The notes beneath the pieces are model-generated. The model did no database searches and was not told the DNA's origin. It worked only from the letters and a program-made list of their open reading frames with translations. A DNA stretch of 59,749 bases from Candidatus Woesearchaeota archaeon (GTDB lineage: Archaea; Nanobdellota; Nanobdellia; SCGC-AAA011-G17; VGLX01): positions 1-59,749 of the forward strand of contig CAYSAF010000004.1 of the NCBI GenBank assembly GCA_964428965.1, written 5' to 3'. Below, one piece after another: positions 3,480-58,549 of this stretch (position 1 is the first letter of the stretch; each line of letters starts with the position of its first letter). The translations under genes were made by a program, and so were the position numbers.

Positions 3480-3640
3480 TGGATAAGCTTTGCACATAAT
3501 TGGGTTTCTTAGTAGTGCATATTACAAATTTGCATTTTTTGGGAGTTATGTGCTTGTCCATTCATAATGATGGGCTTTTGGGCATAAGCTTGTGCCCCTG
3601 ATCTAAGCATGTAGCTTAGACCCCGTTTTGCTATGTTGAA
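3480..3640 (-). ncRNA. Candidate omega-RNA scaffold overlapping the tnpB 3' end (boundaries approximate)
   Basis: Hairpins TCTAAGC-TACAT-GCTTAGA and GGGCA...TGCCC in the last ~120 nt of tnpB, where omega-RNAs are normally encoded. Confidence 0.4.
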
Positions 3641-4573
3641 TGCTGCATTTCTGTCTGCATTATCTTTGTGTCCGCATTTACATGTGAACCAGTTTTTTGT
3701 TCTTTTTCCGGTGCTGCCACAGGCAGAGCATGTTTTTGAGGTGTTCCATTCAGATATTTTTATTAGTGGGACTCCTTTTTCTTTTGTTTTGTATTCTAAA
3801 AATTGGGTTAGTTTGTAATAAGAGAAATTTGAGAGTTTTCTATTGAGTAGTCTGCCTTTAGTTTTGTTGATACCTTTTAACCTGCCTATTACAATGGCTG
3901 CTTTCTTTTTGTTTGCTTCGGTAATTATGTCTTTGGATATCTTATGTAGTAGTGTGTTTATTTTCCTTTTTTCTTTGTTTTTCATCTTTTGTATTTGTTT
4001 TAGTTTTTTATTTTTTCCGAGTTTTTTCCTTAGGTAGTAGTATTTTCCTCTTATTTGATTTAGTTCTTTTCCTATGAATTTTGTTTTTCTTGTTGAGAGT
4101 TCTATTGATGTTATGGGGTTTTTTAGGCCTGTATCTATGCCTATGATTTCTTTTGGTTTGTAGGGTTTAGGTTCGGGTATTTCTATGCAGAGGTATAGGT
4201 AGTATTTTGAATTTTTTCTTAGTAGGTATGAGTCTTTTATTGTGAATTTTTCTGGTAGGGGCTGATGGAATTTTAGTGGTAGCCACATTCCTCTTCCTTT
4301 TCTTTGGCTGTTTGGTATTTTGAGCCAGTGTTTTGTTATTTTTGTTTCTCTTTCCCTGAACCAGTCTTTTATTAGAACAGCCCAAAGTGGTAGGGAATAT
4401 TCCTTATATTTTATCTTCTTTTGTTTGAACTTCTTACTAGCTTTAAAACAGCTTAACAAGCCATGATCTATGCCAAAAATCATCCACCATTGATAATTAT
4501 TGTAGTCTGTATCAATCAGTCTCTTTTTAGATTTTGTCAGATTAATGATTGAAACTTTTACAGTCTTAATCAT
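3509..4573 (-). CDS. tnpB: TnpB RNA-guided endonuclease (IS200/IS605 family), no tnpA nearby
   Basis: RuvC-I GIDTG, IVIGRL region, ISEWNTSKTCSACG...CKCG zinc finger, NADRNAAFNI RuvC-III. Confidence 0.88.
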   Translation of the reverse strand: MIKTVKVSIINLTKSKKRLIDTDYNNYQWWMIFGIDHGLLSCFKASKKFKQKKIKYKEYSLPLWAVLIKDWFRERETKITKHWLKIPNSQRKGRGMWLPLKFHQPLPEKFTIKDSYLLRKNSKYYLYLCIEIPEPKPYKPKEIIGIDTGLKNPITSIELSTRKTKFIGKELNQIRGKYYYLRKKLGKNKKLKQIQKMKNKEKRKINTLLHKISKDIITEANKKKAAIVIGRLKGINKTKGRLLNRKLSNFSYYKLTQFLEYKTKEKGVPLIKISEWNTSKTCSACGSTGKRTKNWFTCKCGHKDNADRNAAFNIAKRGLSYMLRSGAQAYAQKPIIMNGQAHNSQKMQICNMHY

Positions 4574-10379: not shown

Positions 10380-10991
10380 TTATGGTGGGTATACTCCACG
10401 TATTTTCTTTAACCTGCTCGGATACCCCATTCTGTGTAGCGCTCTTTTTTTTATAAAATTTATATACGACCTAGTTACCCCGAAATGCTCTGCAATCTGT
10501 TTTACTGTGAGTTCTTCACCGTCTATTCCGAACCTCATCCTTAAAATCTGTTCTTCCCTAGGGCTTAGGCTTTTTAGTATTTCGTCTACAACCTCTATGG
10601 TGGCTTTTTTCATGATTTCTTCCTCGGGTGAGGGATAGTATGGTATTTCTTCTCTTGGTGCTGGCTGTGAGAGGTAAATGAGATCTTCTAATGGCACTTG
10701 TCTTTCCTTGTAGTATCTTACTCTTGGTTTTATTATCTTAAGTTCTATCGGGAAAACTTCTTTCTTTTTTATTGGTACTCCATGGTCCTTGTAGAATTTG
10801 CAGATTTTTCTCTGGTCTCTTAGTTTTGGGTATAATTTCATGCCTTCGTACTTTATGTATTTCCAGTATCTTATTTCTGTGTCCTCTGCTACTTTCTTCG
10901 CGGTTAATTCTAATTGTTCCCTTGCTCCGACTAGCTTGGCGTTCTTCACCTTCATTTCCAGTCTTAGCGAAAATTTTCTTTCTTTTTCCAT
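10380..10991 (-). CDS. Protein with C-terminal sigma-70 region 4-like HTH
   Basis: LKSLSPREEQILRMRFGIDGEELTVKQIAEHFGVTRSYINFIKKRALHRM. Confidence 0.75.
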   Translation of the reverse strand: MEKERKFSLRLEMKVKNAKLVGAREQLELTAKKVAEDTEIRYWKYIKYEGMKLYPKLRDQRKICKFYKDHGVPIKKKEVFPIELKIIKPRVRYYKERQVPLEDLIYLSQPAPREEIPYYPSPEEEIMKKATIEVVDEILKSLSPREEQILRMRFGIDGEELTVKQIAEHFGVTRSYINFIKKRALHRMGYPSRLKKIRGVYPP

Positions 10992-20680: not shown

Positions 20681-21091
20681 ATGCCTACAAAGACTGTTGA
20701 GAAAACCAAAGTCATAATCAAAGAGAAGGTGCCGCAACAAAAGGCTCCTAAAAGGAAGTCTGTTAGTACGTCTTCTAGTAAGGAAGAGATCATCAATCAG
20801 CTCATGCAGAGCAACCTGGCTTTGCAGGATAAGACAGTTGACCTGCTGCACGGTATGAAGGAGCTGACAAAGAGGATTGATAACATGGTTAAGCTTTTCG
20901 AGGAGGCTGCTTCTCAGATTAAGTCAGGTACTGACGAGCCTCTCATGAAGAAGCTTGAGGAACTTCTTGATCAGAATAAGACTATTGCTAAGGGCCTCAT
21001 CTTGTTGGAGAAGTATGTTAGGGAGCGTGCTTCAGCTTCTATTCCTGGTTTTTCTCCGAGAAGCGGAGTTCTGCCTCCTGAGCTGTTTTGA
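20681..21091 (+). CDS. Hypothetical coiled-coil protein
   Basis: 136-aa ORF with RBS GAGGTG. Confidence 0.7.
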   Translation: MPTKTVEKTKVIIKEKVPQQKAPKRKSVSTSSSKEEIINQLMQSNLALQDKTVDLLHGMKELTKRIDNMVKLFEEAASQIKSGTDEPLMKKLEELLDQNKTIAKGLILLEKYVRERASASIPGFSPRSGVLPPELF

Positions 21092-22131
21092 AAATGGACA
21101 TCAAGTTCATCAGGGATGATACAGAGGAGAGGGCTATTAAAGAGCTTAACGAGATTCTCGAGGTGCTTTCCTCTGAGACGCAGTCTAGGAAAGTTTACGC
21201 TGCTAAGAGGTTTCTTCTTGCTATGTTCGCGGCTAGCAGGCCCCCTGCTGAGCAACCTACCCTTGTTCAGGAGGCTCCTTACATGAAATCTGCTATTTCA
21301 AGGGGTCTCTCAATCCCTATAAGGATTAAGGAGAGGCCTGCTGTTAAGGTTCCTACCCCTCCAATGTCTCAGTTGAGAGCCCAGCAACTTGCTCGTCAGA
21401 AGAAGATCCCTGTTGCTAAGCCGGAGGCTCCTCTGCCTACCCCAAGGCCTTCTGAGGTTAGGAGGGTTGAGAAAAAGTTTGGGATAATTCCCTCACCCTC
21501 AAAGGAAGAGTTCCTGGAATTTGAGGACCCCTTCCCCGAGTTGGAGAGGAGCTACCCTTTGACCATCTTGAAAGATACCAACGGTGTTGCCATAGTTAGG
21601 AATTCCCTTGGTATGTCAGGCGAAGGTGTGGTTTACAACATTTCTGAGCCGAGCGTTGATGCTAACGCTTTGGGTTTTGCTAAGGATTTGATTGCTAAGG
21701 ATGTAAGGAAGAAGCCCCAGTATCTTGATGATGATAGGTACATGAAAAAGAACATTGAAAAGGCTTTGAAGAAGGCCAAGCTTAACTACTCTGACGATTA
21801 TGCTGACAGGTTGAAGTACTTTTTGAGAAGGGACCTTGTTGGTTTTGGCAAGGTTGATGCCTTCTTGCAGGACCCTAACGTCAGGTCTGTTGTTTGTGGC
21901 GGTGTTGATAAGCCCGTTCGTGTTTTGTTCAACAACGGCTTGGAAGTCAAGAGCGACGTTGTTTTTTCTAATGCTGCTGAGCTGGATTCTTTTGTTAAGT
22001 ATCTCTCTACCAAGTTTCCCTGCAATCCTGTTTCAGGCCCTAATTTCGAGGGCATTTTTAATAACTGGAAGATAGAAGGTATTTTGGGTTTTGGCAACAT
22101 AAGCTCCAAGTTTGTGATAAGACGACCATAA
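21088..22131 (+). CDS. Protein resembling the N-terminal domain of type II/IV secretion ATPases, lacking the ATPase domain
   Basis: YFLRRDLVGFGKVDAFLQDPNV...KPVRV...FVIRR, then stop; no Walker A; Pro-rich linker. Confidence 0.65.
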   Translation: MKMDIKFIRDDTEERAIKELNEILEVLSSETQSRKVYAAKRFLLAMFAASRPPAEQPTLVQEAPYMKSAISRGLSIPIRIKERPAVKVPTPPMSQLRAQQLARQKKIPVAKPEAPLPTPRPSEVRRVEKKFGIIPSPSKEEFLEFEDPFPELERSYPLTILKDTNGVAIVRNSLGMSGEGVVYNISEPSVDANALGFAKDLIAKDVRKKPQYLDDDRYMKKNIEKALKKAKLNYSDDYADRLKYFLRRDLVGFGKVDAFLQDPNVRSVVCGGVDKPVRVLFNNGLEVKSDVVFSNAAELDSFVKYLSTKFPCNPVSGPNFEGIFNNWKIEGILGFGNISSKFVIRRP

Positions 22132-25836: not shown

Positions 25837-25878
25837 TTTACCAAAAACTTTATATTGTGCTGTAATTTTTTATTTTTC

Positions 25879-27096
25879 ATGGATAGGGTTTTGGGTAAAG
25901 TTCTTGAAAAAATAAAGCCGACTAAGGAAGAGGAGTTGTTCGTCAAGAAGCTTGCTGATGATATAATCGGCAAGATTAGGGTTAAGAATGCTAAGGTCGT
26001 TCTAGGCGGCTCTGGTGCCAAGGGTACCTGGATGAAGGGAACTCATGACATCGATATTTATGTTAAGTTTGACTTTAAGAAGTACAGAGATAAAGACATC
26101 TCTAAGATCCTGGCCAAGGAGTTGTGGAAGAAGTTCTCAAGGGTTGTTTCTCTTCACGGTTCCCGTGATTATTTCAGGGTTTTCAAGGAGGAGTTTACTT
26201 TTGAGATCGTTCCGATTCTTGATATTAAGAAGGCTTCTGAGGCTGTTAACATTACAGACATAAGCCCTTTGCATACTTTGTGGCTCAGGAAGTATGCTAA
26301 GCTTACCGATGATATAAGGCTTGCTAAGGCTTTTTGTCGTGCGCAGTCTTGTTACGGTGCTGAGTCCTACATTCGAGGTTTTTCTGGTTATGTTTTGGAG
26401 ATTCTGGTTGTTAGGTACGGCTCTTTTGAGAGATTCGTAAAGGCTGTTGCTAACTGGAAGGATAAAGAATACATAGATGTTATGAAGCATGGTGTTGAGC
26501 TTAACAGGGCAAAAACCCAGTCCCCTCTTATTTTGATAGATCCTGTTCAGCCTGATAGGAATGCTGCAGCAGCCTTGAGCAGGGAGCAGTACGTTAAGCT
26601 TATTGCTGCTGCTAAGAAATTCTTGAAGAATCCTTCTGAGGAGTTTTTTGTCAGGAGAGAGTTGACCGTAGACGATTTGAGGGAGAAGGCTAAGGGCAAG
26701 ACACTGGTTCTTTTTGAGGTTGTCCCTCTTGCTGGTAAGGAAGACGTGGTCGGTGCTAAATTGCTTAAGGCTTTCACCTATATCAGGAGCTCATTCTTGA
26801 AGGAAGGTTTCACTGTTTACGATGCTTCATGGTCTTGGAATAAGAAGGCCTTGTTTTATTTCATAGTCAATTCTGGTTTGTTGCCTGAGTTTAAGGTTCA
26901 TATCGGACCTAAAGCCTCTCAGCAGAGGCACGCTTCTAGGTTTAGGGAGAAGAACAGGAGGTATGCTGTTTTTGAAGATAGGGGCAGGTTGTGTGCTAAG
27001 ATTCCCCGCAAGTTTCGTGACGCTTCTTCTTTTTCTGGGAATCTGGTTAAGGATAGTAATCTTAAGCAGTGGGTTAAGTCGTTGAGTTTATTTTAG
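25879..27096 (+). CDS. cca: Archaeal CCA-adding enzyme
   Basis: GSGAKGT...DIDIYV, GAESYIRGFSGY, LIDPVQPDRNAAAA. Confidence 0.93.
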   Translation: MDRVLGKVLEKIKPTKEEELFVKKLADDIIGKIRVKNAKVVLGGSGAKGTWMKGTHDIDIYVKFDFKKYRDKDISKILAKELWKKFSRVVSLHGSRDYFRVFKEEFTFEIVPILDIKKASEAVNITDISPLHTLWLRKYAKLTDDIRLAKAFCRAQSCYGAESYIRGFSGYVLEILVVRYGSFERFVKAVANWKDKEYIDVMKHGVELNRAKTQSPLILIDPVQPDRNAAAALSREQYVKLIAAAKKFLKNPSEEFFVRRELTVDDLREKAKGKTLVLFEVVPLAGKEDVVGAKLLKAFTYIRSSFLKEGFTVYDASWSWNKKALFYFIVNSGLLPEFKVHIGPKASQQRHASRFREKNRRYAVFEDRGRLCAKIPRKFRDASSFSGNLVKDSNLKQWVKSLSLF

Positions 27097-53222: not shown

Positions 53223-53453
53223 TTATTTGAGCTGTTTCATAAACTCTTCTCTGGAAATGCATAAGTCTTTTTTGATTATTTTATTGAGAAGTCCCCTGTC
53301 CAGTTTTTCTCCGGGATGGTTTGGTACAACAGTGGTCCTGCCGTCAGGGTGTCTGAAGAAAACGTGACTTCCCTCTTGTCTTATCTTTTCAAAACCAAGT
53401 TTAGTTAGAACCTTGAACAACTCCTTAGCAGGAAGTAAAGGCAGTTTTGGCAT
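53223..53453 (-). CDS. hicA: HicA-family toxin
   Basis: LGFEKIRQEGSHVFFRHPDGRTTVVPNH. Confidence 0.9.
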   Translation of the reverse strand: MPKLPLLPAKELFKVLTKLGFEKIRQEGSHVFFRHPDGRTTVVPNHPGEKLDRGLLNKIIKKDLCISREEFMKQLK

Positions 53454-53454
53454 T

Positions 53455-53661
53455 TTATACTGCTATTTTCTGTAAGCCGATAAACTTTTCAGAAATCTTT
53501 AAGGGTTCTTTTTGTGATTTTAGGTATAGGGAAATTGCTTCCTTGGTCCTTTTGATCAGCTCGTCCATTGTTTTTGCTTGGGTGTGGCATCCTGGAAGCT
53601 CAACTACGTCTGATATTAAGTAGCCATCTTCTCCTTCTTCTATAATCATATTAAATTGCAT
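53455..53661 (-). CDS. hicB: HicB-family antitoxin
   Basis: EDGY...VELPGCHTQAKTMDEL. Confidence 0.9.
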   Translation of the reverse strand: MQFNMIIEEGEDGYLISDVVELPGCHTQAKTMDELIKRTKEAISLYLKSQKEPLKISEKFIGLQKIAV

Positions 53662-54911: not shown

Positions 54912-55994
54912 ATGTGCTACTGCACTATGTTTCCTGCCTCTATTTTCCCATCAGTAGAGGATGTGTTGATGAGAAATTATGCTCACTTATTAGGCGCATC
55001 TTCGTTCAGGGGGTTAAAGCGGATAGTTAGGGATAACATGGAAAGTTTGACAGATATGGAAAAACGCATTTTAAGCATGAGGTTTTCTAAGTTGAGAGCT
55101 AAGGAAATAAACTCTAAGCTTAACATCAGTCTGCAGAGGGTGTATTATAGGGAGAGGCGTGCTATTTCCAAAGTTCTTGCTGATTTAAAAAGTAAGCAAC
55201 TTCAACATATGGATAAAGAGCGGATACTTAACATGTTTCTTTCAGAATTCGCTAAATATCTTCCATCATCGCCTAATGTTAATTATTACACTCGCGTGAG
55301 GCATTCTTTCTCCAGGATTAAAGATATGAAAATAGGTGGGCTAATAGAGATGGGCCCTTCAATTATGAACAAAGTTGGAATAGGTGCTCGTTCCTATGAT
55401 CGTCTAAGAAAGTTTTTATTGAATTATGATATCAAATTAGAAAAGATTCCATCTTTGTACGATACCAATATTAAGAAGTACATCAATGTCTTATCCACTT
55501 CCTCTTTGGATGATACAAAAATTACCATTTCTAGGTATGGAGATTTCCTTGAACCTTTAGAGCTTAAGGTCTTGAAGATGAGGCTTTTTGGTAACTCGCT
55601 TAGAAGTATTGGTATGAAAGTTGATCTAACTCGTGAACGCATTAGAAAGATAGAGTCTTATGCCCTTGAAAAGCTGAGGTTTTATTCTGATCGTAGTTTA
55701 GAAAATTACACAAAAGATGATGTTTTGAGTATGAAAGTTTCAGAATTTGTTAATCTGATCCCTCCTGCTCGTGATTATAAGGCTGTTAGGATAAAGAATG
55801 CCCTTTTGACCTGTTTCAGCGAGCATAACCTTGCATATCTTGTTGAAAATCCAGATGAACTTGCTAAGTGCCCTGCTTTTCATGCAAAGTGTTATATGTC
55901 TTTCAGGAATATACTAAGAAATTATGGTATATCGCTTGCTAATACTGATTATTTTAAACCCCATAAAATTCTTTTACCTAATAATAAGGTTTAA
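54912..55994 (+). CDS. Protein with duplicated sigma-70 region 4-like and RNAP alpha-CTD-like modules
   Basis: LTDMEKRILSMR...; LEPLELKVLKMR...LTRERIRKIESYALEKL; GIGARSYDRL...; VRIKNAL. Confidence 0.6.
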   Translation: MCYCTMFPASIFPSVEDVLMRNYAHLLGASSFRGLKRIVRDNMESLTDMEKRILSMRFSKLRAKEINSKLNISLQRVYYRERRAISKVLADLKSKQLQHMDKERILNMFLSEFAKYLPSSPNVNYYTRVRHSFSRIKDMKIGGLIEMGPSIMNKVGIGARSYDRLRKFLLNYDIKLEKIPSLYDTNIKKYINVLSTSSLDDTKITISRYGDFLEPLELKVLKMRLFGNSLRSIGMKVDLTRERIRKIESYALEKLRFYSDRSLENYTKDDVLSMKVSEFVNLIPPARDYKAVRIKNALLTCFSEHNLAYLVENPDELAKCPAFHAKCYMSFRNILRNYGISLANTDYFKPHKILLPNNKV

Positions 55995-56020: not shown

Positions 56021-57034
56021 ATGATAGTTATCGACGGTAGCACAGGTGAAGGGGGAGGTCAGATGTTGAGGACCGCCCTAGGTCTTTCTGCTCTGACAGG
56101 TAAACCTTTCAGCATGATTAACATTAGGAAAGGAAGGGATAATCCTGGCATTAAGGAGCAGCACCTTCAGGCTGTTAATGCTGTTGCCAAGCTTTGTGAT
56201 GCCAAGGTTGAGGGTGCTGAGATTAACTCCATGAACTTGGAGTTCATTCCGAATGCGATTCGTTCTGGTAACATTAATGTTGCTATCTCTACAGCTGGTT
56301 CAGTTGGCCTTGTTCTTCAATCATTGCTTATACCTGCTGTTAAGACTGATTTGAGGATTAGGATTAAAGGGGGTGCTACCTGTGGCAAGTGGGCCATGCC
56401 CATTGACCATTTCAAGTTTGTTCTCTCTCCCCTCCTAAAAAGGCTCGGTTACGAGACCGGTGTTGTTGTTAAAAAGGAAGGTTTTTATCCGAAAGGCGGT
56501 GCTCTTGTTGAGGTTTTTTCTGGCAAGGTTAAGCAAATCCTCCCTATCGATGTTATGGAGAAGGGAAAAATTATTTCCATCAATGGAAAAAGTATTGCTT
56601 CTGAGCAGTTAAGGAATGCCAGGGTTGCAGAAAGGCAAGCAAATTCTGCTAAGAAACTTCTCTTTGATCATTTCAAGACTGATGCTAACATAAAGGTTGA
56701 GTATGTTAATACATTAAATGCTGGTTCTGGGATTCAGCTTTGGATTGAGACAGAGAACTCCGTCATCGGTGGCAATTCTCTAGGTGAGGTGGGTAAGAAG
56801 GCTGAGATTGTTGGTGAGGAGGCAGCAAATAATCTTGTGGAGGATTTTGAGCATGGTTGTGTTGATCGTTTTACTTCTGATCAGCTTCTTCCTTACATGG
56901 CCCTTGCTGGTTCAGGTCGTTTCCTTGCTTCTAAGATTACTGACCATGTTAGGACGAATGCCTTGGTTATTGAGCAGTTTCTCGATGTGAAATTCAATTT
57001 AAAGGATAAGTTGATTGAATGTAAAAGCGTTTAA
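56021..57034 (+). CDS. rtcA: RNA 3'-terminal phosphate cyclase
   Basis: IDGSTGEGGGQMLRTA, GFYPKGG, DQLLPY, TDHVRTN. Confidence 0.95.
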   Translation: MIVIDGSTGEGGGQMLRTALGLSALTGKPFSMINIRKGRDNPGIKEQHLQAVNAVAKLCDAKVEGAEINSMNLEFIPNAIRSGNINVAISTAGSVGLVLQSLLIPAVKTDLRIRIKGGATCGKWAMPIDHFKFVLSPLLKRLGYETGVVVKKEGFYPKGGALVEVFSGKVKQILPIDVMEKGKIISINGKSIASEQLRNARVAERQANSAKKLLFDHFKTDANIKVEYVNTLNAGSGIQLWIETENSVIGGNSLGEVGKKAEIVGEEAANNLVEDFEHGCVDRFTSDQLLPYMALAGSGRFLASKITDHVRTNALVIEQFLDVKFNLKDKLIECKSV

Positions 57035-57073
57035 CAAAAGCTTTAAAAACATGCCTTTTTCTATTAGTTACAT

Positions 57074-57272
57074 AGCGGGGTGGAGCAGCTAGGAGTGCTC
57101 GTCGAATCAAGTCTTTTAGATTGATGCGAAAGGCCCATATAGCCTAGCAAATTGGCTCTGGACACCCGGAATTAGGAAACTAATGGGCAAAGGTCGATGG
57201 AGGGGGTTCAGAAATCAAAGAATTCCCGTCGAATTCAAAAGGGAAAACCTGAATGTCCATCCCCCGCTACCA
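57074..57272 (+). tRNA. Initiator tRNA-Met(CAT) with five introns: exons 57074-57104, 57132-57139, 57164-57169, 57191-57200, 57234-57239, 57256-57272
   Basis: Joined exons give 78 nt: AGCGGGG-TG-GAGC-AGCTAGGAGT-GCTC-G-TCGGG-CCCATAA-CCCGG-AGGTC-GATGG-TTCAAAT-CCATC-CCCCGCT-A-CCA. It has A1-U72 and three G-C pairs 29-31/39-41. Each removed segment forms a BHB-type fold. Confidence 0.9.
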
Positions 57273-57379
57273 CTTTATAATAGTAGCATTATTACTACTT
57301 TAAACATATATTTTTTAGCGAATAGACATCCGTCATGTCCACGGGCAGTATATATAAATAATAGAGAAATCTTCAAGTA

Positions 57380-58549
57380 GTGCCACATACAAAATTTTCA
57401 GATGGTTATATTTACCTCAATAAAGAGGAGGTAACTAATTATTTTACAATAGAAGGTAATCGACTATCACTAAAAGATTCGATAGCTAAACCCATTAAAA
57501 TAAACTTACCATTCAAAATTGATGAGAATGTCGCAAAAATTTCTGCAATGCTTTTAGATGGTTCATTAAACAAAAATCTTAGTGGTGTTATGTTTTCTCA
57601 AAAGAAAGACAAAAATAAGGTAACAGAATTTAGTAAAATAGTAAAAGAATACTTTGGTTTAGTGGGAAGATTTTCAATTCGTAGCGATACCGGTACTTCT
57701 ATTGTTACAATAAGTAGTAAAACATTGAGTACTTTTCTTCACAAATCTCTTGGTTTATCAAAATCAGACGAGCCAACACGAATTCCCTTGTGGGTTTGGA
57801 ACTCACCTAAATCTGTAGTAATAGAATACTTGAGGTATGCTTATGCTATGGAAGGTTCAATTAACCATCCTTCAAAGGCAGCTGAAATAAGATTTCATAG
57901 TGTTTCCTTGCCTTATATAAAAGATTTAAAGAAACTCCTATTCGAAAAATTCAAAATAGATTCTAAAATCCAGAGGTATTACATCAAGGATTATGGATGG
58001 AAATATTTTTTATATTTTTGTAGTAGAAAAAATATTATCAAGTTCAAAGATATAGGCTTTGCGTTGAAGTCTCACCAAGACAGATTAGAAAAAGTTAGCT
58101 CTTCGTTTAAAAATAAATCTTGGGAGATTATGTTGGTTAATATTTTAGGTTTGTATAAAAATATATTTACTTTAAATGATATGAACAAAAAATTTTCATA
58201 CCTTTGTAAAAGGGCAGTTCATTGGAGGTTAACGAATCTAGTAAATATGGGTTATTTGAGAAAAGAAAAGGATGGGTATTCCATCACAGGAGCAGGATAC
58301 TTACTGGCTTTATGCTTACTAAACAGAGTAAGGACAACTAGATTAAGAACAAATCCAAGAAAGAATGAAGATGCAGTTCTAAACTTCTTAAATTCTAATG
58401 GTAAGGGCTATAGAAATGAGATAGCAAGAAAAGTAGGTGTACACCCTGCAACCGTCCGTGATACTCTTTTAAGACTGGTTAAACAGCAGAAAATACAGTT
58501 AATTGTCTCTGACAAATTCCAAAGAAAGTTCTATTCTATCAAATCATAA
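57380..58549 (+). CDS. Free-standing double-motif LAGLIDADG-type protein with C-terminal winged-helix domains (GTG start)
   Basis: ISAMLLDGSL and LRYAYAMEGSI motifs; C-terminal YRNEIARKVGVHPATVRDTLLRLVKQ HTH; AT-rich. Confidence 0.75.
   Translation: MPHTKFSDGYIYLNKEEVTNYFTIEGNRLSLKDSIAKPIKINLPFKIDENVAKISAMLLDGSLNKNLSGVMFSQKKDKNKVTEFSKIVKEYFGLVGRFSIRSDTGTSIVTISSKTLSTFLHKSLGLSKSDEPTRIPLWVWNSPKSVVIEYLRYAYAMEGSINHPSKAAEIRFHSVSLPYIKDLKKLLFEKFKIDSKIQRYYIKDYGWKYFLYFCSRKNIIKFKDIGFALKSHQDRLEKVSSSFKNKSWEIMLVNILGLYKNIFTLNDMNKKFSYLCKRAVHWRLTNLVNMGYLRKEKDGYSITGAGYLLALCLLNRVRTTRLRTNPRKNEDAVLNFLNSNGKGYRNEIARKVGVHPATVRDTLLRLVKQQKIQLIVSDKFQRKFYSIKS

Follow-up and report, generated by a model that had tools for sequence, protein, structure and literature searches.

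In the bulge-helix-bulge (BHB) introns of archaeal tRNA genes, the splice sites lie in 3-nt bulges that flank a 4-bp helix, and each strand is cut after the second bulge nucleotide. Split tRNAs are known from Nanoarchaeum equitans. Concerning the number of introns that one archaeal tRNA gene can carry, ‘up to three’ is the figure given in the tRNAscan-SE 2.0 paper, which also describes the ordered removal of closely spaced tRNA introns in Thermoproteales (PMC8450103); ordered removal of tRNA introns was also demonstrated by RT-PCR in Cyanidioschyzon merolae (PMC3728597). A 2024 paper on the Asgard archaea Atabeyarchaeia and Freyarchaeia lists, in its Supplementary Data 4, genes with up to four introns, and the same source reports three introns for the iMet gene of Atabeyarchaeia-2 (PMC11291895). 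Among DPANN archaea, ARMAN-2/Micrarchaeum combines multi-intron tRNAs with an epsilon2 splicing endonuclease (EndA; PMC3239211). Additionally, alpha4 EndA variants of DPANN that carry an inserted L3 loop have been linked to extensive disruption of tRNA genes, and the incompleteness of predicted DPANN tRNA sets has been attributed to undetected disrupted genes (PMC5829648).

The gene analyzed here is found in a stretch of 59,749 nt, referred to below as the window. In all likelihood it is the orthologous, and probably the sole, initiator tRNA-Met (tRNAi-Met) gene of an uncultivated archaeon from the Nanoarchaeota/Woesearchaeota group of DPANN, and it carries five BHB introns between six colinear exons. 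The genome is represented by this one 59.7-kb contig, and we infer that the gene is its only tRNAi.

Spliced product and initiator identity

The tRNAi-Met gene occupies 199 nt of the window, of which 121 (61%) belong to five inserts of 27, 24, 21, 33 and 16 nt, denoted I1 to I5; the colinear exons measure 31, 8, 6, 10, 6 and 14 (+3) nt (Table 1). Excision of the five inserts gives the 78-nt product AGCGGGGTGGAGCAGCTAGGAGTGCTCGTCGGGCCCATAACCCGGAGGTCGATGGTTCAAATCCATCCCCCGCTACCA, called by ARAGORN as a tRNA-Met(cat) in which all stems are perfect. An earlier sequence-only reading had proposed five inserts at these coordinates and a textbook 78-nt initiator tRNA after their removal; sequence, helices and stems are all as it described them, in exact BHB register, and the cloverleaf is the predicted one. 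Its identification of an initiator tRNA-Met gene with five BHB introns is moreover backed by an independent comparison with the loci of relatives (see below).

Table 1. Features of the tRNAi-Met locus and other genes mentioned in the text, in window coordinates
Feature	Coordinates	Strand	Description
TnpB/Cas12f1-like protein	3509..4573	-	Pfam Cas12f1-like_TNB, weak OrfB_IS605; IS200/IS605-type element
Sigma-70 region 4 domain protein	10380..10991	-	
CCA-adding enzyme gene	25855..27096	+	archaeal class-I
Two adjacent small ORFs	53223..53661	-	76 and 68 aa; resemble a HicA toxin/HicB antitoxin pair (by reading)
Sigma-70 region 4 domain protein	54912..55994	+	adjoins RtcA upstream
RtcA (RNA 3′-terminal phosphate cyclase)	56021..57034	+	Pfam RTC and RTC_insert precomputed matches; synteny anchor
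Putative BRE/TATA-like promoter	57036..57050	+	AAAAGCTTTAAAAAC; directly after RtcA stop codon, ends 24 nt before tRNA position 1
tRNAi-Met gene	57074..57272	+	199 nt
Exon 1	57074..57104	+	tRNA positions 1–29: 5′ acceptor strand, D arm, 5′ part of anticodon stem
Intron 1 (I1)	57105..57131	+	27 nt, 29/30; helix UCGU/GCGA 4/4, stem AUCAA/UUGAU (5 bp)
Exon 2	57132..57139	+	positions 30–37, GGCCCAUA, holds anticodon CAU
Intron 2 (I2)	57140..57163	+	24 nt, canonical 37/38; relaxed BHB, strict-register helix 2/4, stem AGCC/GGCU (4 bp)
Exon 3	57164..57169	+	positions 38–43, ACCCGG, 6-nt micro-exon
Intron 3 (I3)	57170..57190	+	21 nt, 43/44; helix (A)CCC/GGG(C) 3/4, stem AUUAG/CUAAU (5 bp)
Exon 4	57191..57200	+	positions 44–53: variable loop, 5′ T-stem strand
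Intron 4 (I4)	57201..57233	+	33 nt, 53/54; helix CGAU/GUCG 4/4, 8-bp stem
Exon 5	57234..57239	+	positions 54–59, UUCAAA, T loop, 6-nt micro-exon
Intron 5 (I5)	57240..57255	+	16 nt, 59/60; helix UUCA/UGAA 4/4, 2-bp stem
Exon 6	57256..57269	+	positions 60–73: 3′ T-stem strand, 3′ acceptor strand, discriminator A73
Genomically encoded CCA	57270..57272	+	window reads GCTACCA
LAGLIDADG_3-domain protein	57380..58549	+	389 aa, just 3′ of tRNAi

The identity marks of archaeal initiator tRNA-Met are the A1:U72 and A11:U24 pairs, three G:C pairs at 29–31:39–41 and the CAU anticodon. All of them are borne by the spliced product (CAU, A1:U72, A11:U24 and G29–G31:C39–C41) and are invariant across 14 orthologous alleles. 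When these 14 distinct alleles are spliced, 99.7% of the cloverleaf cells are paired, five pairs being changed on both sides, and their covariation score is reached by none of 500 shuffles. Exon bases 8–31 are identical across 13 DPANN genome contigs in an exact-pattern scan, and the tRNAi locus recurs, base-identical, in three further ENA metagenome assemblies (four independent assemblies in total).

At the 3′ end, the close relatives read GCTATAGG, GCTATTTT, GCTATTCT, GCTACTC or GCTATAT, without an encoded CCA, so that only the 75-nt body is conserved as gene product; one more distant locus (L021) ends in GCTACCA, like the window. A gene for a CCA-adding enzyme is present in the window (Table 1).

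No second tRNA-Met was found elsewhere in the window with ARAGORN, with Rfam at its gathering thresholds or with Rfam at E ≤ 5. In a 24-mer scan of the whole genome collection, each MAG represented gave a single match, including the relatives GCA_043810595.1 and GCA_038884815.1, which argues weakly against second tRNAi copies. These data bear on the possibility that the locus represents a tRNAi copy in decay or without function, in which insertions have accumulated, the working tRNAi being supplied by an intron-poor gene elsewhere. Such a reading would accord with a genome known from one contig, with the weak BHB of I2 and with the U55C change in the T loop of a four-intron allele (L024), but we consider it unlikely: all 75 exon bases form a flawless cloverleaf and exon changes among alleles are compensatory, the inserts are in BHB frame, with covariation between them and the exons, the promoter is conserved in what is the clade-wide syntenic tRNAi locus, and the genome-wide scan detected one match per MAG.

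BHB geometry and predicted splicing route

The same register is observed at all five junctions of the tRNAi-Met gene. The exon ends in four helix nucleotides and two bulge nucleotides, and the intron starts with one bulge nucleotide followed by its stem; on the 3′ side, the intron ends in four helix and two bulge nucleotides, and the following exon opens with one bulge nucleotide. The central helices are complete in I1, I4 and I5, with three of four pairs in I3 and two of four in I2 (Table 1). With boundaries fixed by intron-less orthologues and same-length positions within the window as background, helix and stem of equal quality occur at fractions of 3e-4, 1.5e-2, 2e-3, 3e-5 and 4e-3 of the positions for I1 to I5, respectively; multiplied as if independent, these fractions come to ~1e-15, which leaves no room for chance. 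A blind alignment between the 75-nt mature template and the 196-nt gene, in which the BHB frame was used only to pick among shifts yielding an identical product, places the inserts at 29/30, 37/38, 43/44, 53/54 and 59/60. The 1-nt ambiguity of I3 pointed out in the sequence-only reading is genuine in that 43/44 and 44/45 yield the same product; by inspection, only 43/44 is in the BHB frame.

Comparison among alleles indicates that pairing is maintained through sequence change. The I4 helix is CGAU/GUCG in the window and CGGU/GCCG in L004, L010 and L015, where the stem is kept with different sequences (L followed by a number designates the locus of a relative). The I5 helix is UUCA/UGAA in the window and UCCA/UGGA in L024, with a G:C to A:U change in the intron stem of L008. 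The intron stem of I1 is retained via A:U/G:U and U:A/U:G changes among relatives. The last base of I2, located in the 3′ bulge, varies between C, G and U.

In the minimum-free-energy fold of the precursor, the acceptor stem, the D arm and the T stem are retained. Forcing each BHB in the full precursor costs +3.0, +7.5, +2.4, +2.9 and +2.8 kcal/mol for I1 to I5, respectively. The BHB of I2 is therefore the hardest to form in the unspliced precursor, its cost declining to +3.9 kcal/mol after removal of I1, and that of I3 falls to 0–0.9 kcal/mol once I2 has been removed; I4 and I5 are largely independent in folding. The strict BHBs of all five introns cannot form simultaneously. Several BHB helices use nucleotides of the mature D, anticodon or T stems or of a neighbouring BHB, and U54 belongs to a bulge in the I4 motif and to the helix in that of I5. 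Due to these shared helix nucleotides, the overlap at U54 and the two 6-nt exons, stepwise cutting and ligation, one intron at a time, is the most likely mode of processing.

In a scheme that follows the known archaeal pathway, a single precursor of ~200 nt would be transcribed from the conserved TATA-like promoter. EndA would cut within both 3-nt bulges of each BHB (ten cuts), an RtcB-type ligase would join the exons (five ligations), and the ends would be trimmed and the CCA checked or added. Folding suggests an order in which I1 would leave first, followed by I2 and then I3, with I4 and I5 removed independently. Neither an EndA nor an RtcB gene was found within the 59.7-kb window.

Intron sets and genomic setting among relatives

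Loci of relatives were collected from contigs with an RtcA 79–88% identical to that of the window and by exact-pattern scans of genome and metagenome collections. The closest RtcA homologues belong to MAGs named Nanoarchaeota, Candidatus Nanoarchaeia or Woesearchaeota; together with the archaeal genes on the contig (see below), this places the host in DPANN. The gene order in relatives is RtcA, a variable interval, RNase HII and SMC, with exon 1 of the tRNAi gene recurring between RtcA and RNase HII. The linkage of RtcA and tRNAi is kept in close relatives with one to five introns and is thus not tied to intron number. The motif AAAAGCTTTAAAAAC is found at the same upstream distance in seven of these loci (L004, L005, L006, L008, L010, L024 and L029), with a spacer between motif and gene that diverges, and variants of it (CCTTTAAAAAC or CATTTAAAAAC) in L015, L016, L018 and L023; from its position and conservation, it probably acts as the tRNAi promoter.

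A comparison of the locus across relatives had been recommended in the sequence-only reading, and it bears the assignment out, every insert being present or missing exactly at the named junction. In addition to the window allele with all five introns, L029 has I1, I2, I4 and I5; L008/L009 and L024 have I1, I2, I3 and I5; L005 and L006/L007 have I1 and I2; L004, L010 and L015 have I4 only; and the more distant DPANN loci L011, L014, L016 and L018 have no introns. Each of the five introns is found in at least one other, non-identical genome, and the window allele is their union. Taken individually, the homologue of I1 is present at 29/30 in L005, L006, L008, L017, L024 and L029 and missing in L004, L010, L015 and the intron-less orthologues, and that of I2 is present in L005, L006, L008, L024 and L029. 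I3 is found as an identical 21-mer at 43/44 in L008/L009 and L024 and is missing in L005, L006, L029, L004 and L010. Homologues of I4 occur in L004, L010, L015 and L029, and those of I5 in L008, L024 and L029.

This distribution is relevant to a second alternative, in which a functional gene contains inserts that EndA does not all cut as separate substrates, one or more being removed by another route or I4, exon 5 and I5 being processed as a unit. I4 and I5 are indeed only 6 nt apart and have U54 in common, I2 is relaxed, and the strict BHBs are not all formable at once. However, I4 exists without I5 (L004, L010 and L015), I5 without I4 (L008 and L024), and I1 with I2 but without I3 (L005, L006 and L029), while exon 5 (UUCAAA) is required to rebuild the T loop. 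Since the inserts occur separately in relatives, each must be independently removable at exactly these junctions, and we regard joint or alternative processing as very unlikely.

Least probable, to the point of being hardly credible, is an assembly chimera of co-occurring strain alleles, for example one with I1, I2, I3 and I5 and another containing I4. The union of the relatives' intron sets in the window allele and the origin of the data in metagenomes with related strains would accord with such a chimera, but the identical sequence was independently assembled in three further samples, L029 independently combines I4 and I5 with I1 and I2, and the I4 helix has covaried with the window allele's own T stem (GAUGG), which a chimera would not give. 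Group I and group II self-splicing introns possess a catalytic RNA core whose size is a few hundred nucleotides, which does not fit inserts of 16–33 nt without any Rfam intron family at E ≤ 5. In split or permuted tRNA genes, the pieces lie at separate loci or out of order, to be joined in trans or through a circle, whereas here all six exons follow one another on the same strand within 199 nt, downstream of one promoter. Nor does a tRNA pseudogene, with broken stems, lost conserved nucleotides and neither locus nor promoter conserved, agree with the perfect spliced cloverleaf, the compensatory-only changes between alleles and the conserved synteny and promoter. The preferred reading remains a functional tRNAi-Met gene with five separately removed BHB introns.

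Further variation was observed in the tRNAi family. L020 (258–356; Candidatus Nanoarchaeia MAG, DATDWO010000030.1) contains a perfect 20-nt BHB intron (262–281) in the acceptor stem, at 4/5, a sixth intron position within this family; its helix, AUAG/CUAU, derives partly from the 5′ leader, and its excision yields a tRNA-Met(cat) recognized by ARAGORN. Inserts of 91 nt in the T loop are present in L012 (7415–7620; Aenigmatarchaeota MAG), together with a 37/38 intron, and in L017 (2549–2774, identical to L025; unclassified DPANN MAG), together with introns at 37/38 and 29/30. The outer junction helix of both 91-nt inserts is 4/4, without an adjoining stem. Each can be decomposed into three BHB steps in one way, but so can 9% and 22% of shuffled inserts, respectively, and a reading as nested introns is therefore not significant.

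U55 of the T loop is near-universal in tRNAs. In the four-intron allele L024 (1390–1563, minus strand), the T loop reads UCCAAAU, with C at position 55, and the I5 helix compensates for it (UCCA/UGGA); the change may be a genuine variant or else indicate an allele in decay.

Concerning intron evolution, I2 and I3 show 100% identity between genomes that differ by ~16% in their RtcA proteins (window 57105–57190 versus L006, L008 and L024). The I4-only alleles share a GGUGG T stem, and L004 carries one though its RtcA groups with those of the I1+I2 genomes. More generally, grouping the tRNA alleles by intron set and T-stem type gives classes that conflict with the RtcA tree. The identity of I2 and I3 and this conflict suggest either strong constraint on the intron sequences or exchange of tRNA alleles between strains. 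As the RtcA tree is star-like and at odds with the allele classes, it provides no reliable polarity for gain and loss. The mosaic is compatible with an ancestor that had several introns and lost them repeatedly and precisely, perhaps with allelic recombination in addition. The five introns are unlike one another, and no copies of them were found elsewhere in the window or in the relatives' loci compared, and nothing therefore points to recent transposition. A broader interpretation, for which we see the balance as even, is that no tRNA gene seen so far is denser in introns and that the genome has no other tRNAi, that all translation initiation would need ten cuts and five ligations in an obligatory order, and that the mosaic would reflect precise loss or gain of introns, or recombination between alleles, that is still under way. 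If this holds, the clade would be a natural system for studying tRNA intron turnover, with the sets {4}, {1,2}, {1,2,3,5}, {1,2,4,5} and {1,2,3,4,5}. The same orthologous gene with 0, 1, 2, 4 or 5 introns at precise junctions is unusually clean material on the gain and loss of archaeal tRNA introns, a question of long standing.

The surroundings of the gene deserve a few remarks. Two RNA-end-processing genes are in its vicinity, RtcA immediately upstream and the CCA-adding enzyme gene 30 kb away. The interval between RtcA and RNase HII is variable among relatives and often includes a LAGLIDADG ORF in either orientation. In the window, the LAGLIDADG_3-domain protein encoded beside the tRNAi gene has a C-terminus that, by reading, resembles a winged-helix domain; this protein is also encoded in L008 (7047–7790, minus strand) and L029 (3113–3859, minus strand), and its gene is possibly that of a homing endonuclease, mobile or domesticated. 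Matches to ‘CCCCGCTAAAA’ in L004 and L008, considered as a downstream att scar (a duplicated tRNA 3′ end), turned out to be conserved LAGLIDADG coding region, and no tRNA 3′-end repeat of the att type was found in the window. A 65-aa ORF (57183–57380, plus strand) that overlaps introns 3–5 and exons 4–6 is almost certainly spurious, with no gene called there in public assemblies. The two Sigma-70 region 4 domain proteins are presumably HTH regulators rather than sigma factors, and the one that adjoins RtcA is conserved in L005, L006 and L031. The contig, with a GC content of ~40%, also encodes aEF-2, a thermosome subunit, aCPSF1/FttA and fibrillarin, together with a TnpB/Cas12f1-like protein and a HicA/HicB-like ORF pair (Table 1).

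The locus among known multi-intron tRNA genes

The gene escapes standard detection, as had been anticipated from the sequence: ARAGORN and the Rfam tRNA covariance model are blank at the locus, even at E ≤ 5. Neither recognizes any of the orthologues that have a non-canonical intron; intron-less orthologues score 57–62 bits with Rfam RF00005. As a consequence, DPANN genomes can be credited with no initiator tRNA when they do have one, an error that distorts completeness estimates and claims of a ‘reduced translation machinery’ in DPANN. The other tRNA genes of the window (Pro, Gly and Ser) are intron-less, as read by finders that are blind to non-canonical introns. Regarding hidden intron-containing tRNAs, ~40,000 BHB-like candidate sites in the window are too many for combinatorial excision; a scan of the window for T-arm and promoter motifs returned only the three known tRNAs plus the tRNAi locus. 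GC-rich islands outside tRNAs, considered as hidden tRNAs, are all coding sequence, for example the Pro-rich ORF at 21088–22131, and no other RNA family of note was detected in the whole window with Rfam at E ≤ 5.

As for the number of introns, the maximum of three assumed in the sequence-only reading is outdated, since the Asgard Supplementary Data 4 tabulates four (PMC11291895). Its view that five would be exceptional stands insofar as full-text literature searches returned no report of a five-intron tRNA gene, and four-intron genes only in this Asgard supplementary table. The margin is smaller than had been supposed: five exceeds the tabulated maximum by one, not two, making it a record by one, in another superphylum and with unusually small exons. 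Five introns, 6-nt exons and overlapping BHBs represent an extreme load on the endonuclease/ligase pathway, and splicing order, micro-exon retention and the substrate range of EndA are all testable on one 199-nt substrate.

The closest parallels are found in Thermoproteales, exemplified by Pyrobaculum calidifontis and Thermofilum pendens (Sugahara et al. 2008, per PMC8450103), where canonical and non-canonical BHB introns occur, several per gene, and where, in the account given by PMC8450103, introns at positions of the 29/30, 43/44, 53/54 and 59/60 type are likewise present in tRNA genes. The two systems would also have in common the need for a broad-specificity EndA and the removal of close-set introns in sequence. 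Unlike the Thermoproteales genes, for which that source gives a maximum of three introns, the present gene has five introns and two 6-nt exons, in a DPANN host of ~40% GC rather than a crenarchaeote, and its intron set is polymorphic among near relatives. The Asgard genes, as presented in PMC11291895, resemble it in a very high tRNA intron load, in common non-canonical positions and in introns missed by tRNAscan-SE, and differ from it in their tabulated maximum of four, in superphylum and in that this source offers no presence/absence series among close relatives. In comparison with nuclear tRNA genes of Cyanidioschyzon merolae (PMC3728597), a red alga and thus a eukaryote, the latter have fewer introns per gene, and some are also permuted.

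Other disrupted tRNA genes of DPANN share the superphylum with the present gene, and the loop-inserted EndA variants described there recognize relaxed BHBs (PMC3239211, PMC5829648). The tRNAi locus fits the published suspicion that disrupted tRNA genes of DPANN have been overlooked (PMC5829648). In contrast with those genes, its exons are colinear in one transcript rather than split between loci, and its introns are more numerous. Within the limits of the sources compared, the tRNAi-Met gene is an extreme case of a known kind, the multi-intron archaeal tRNA gene, presumably relying on the ordinary endonuclease/ligase pathway rather than on a new mechanism.
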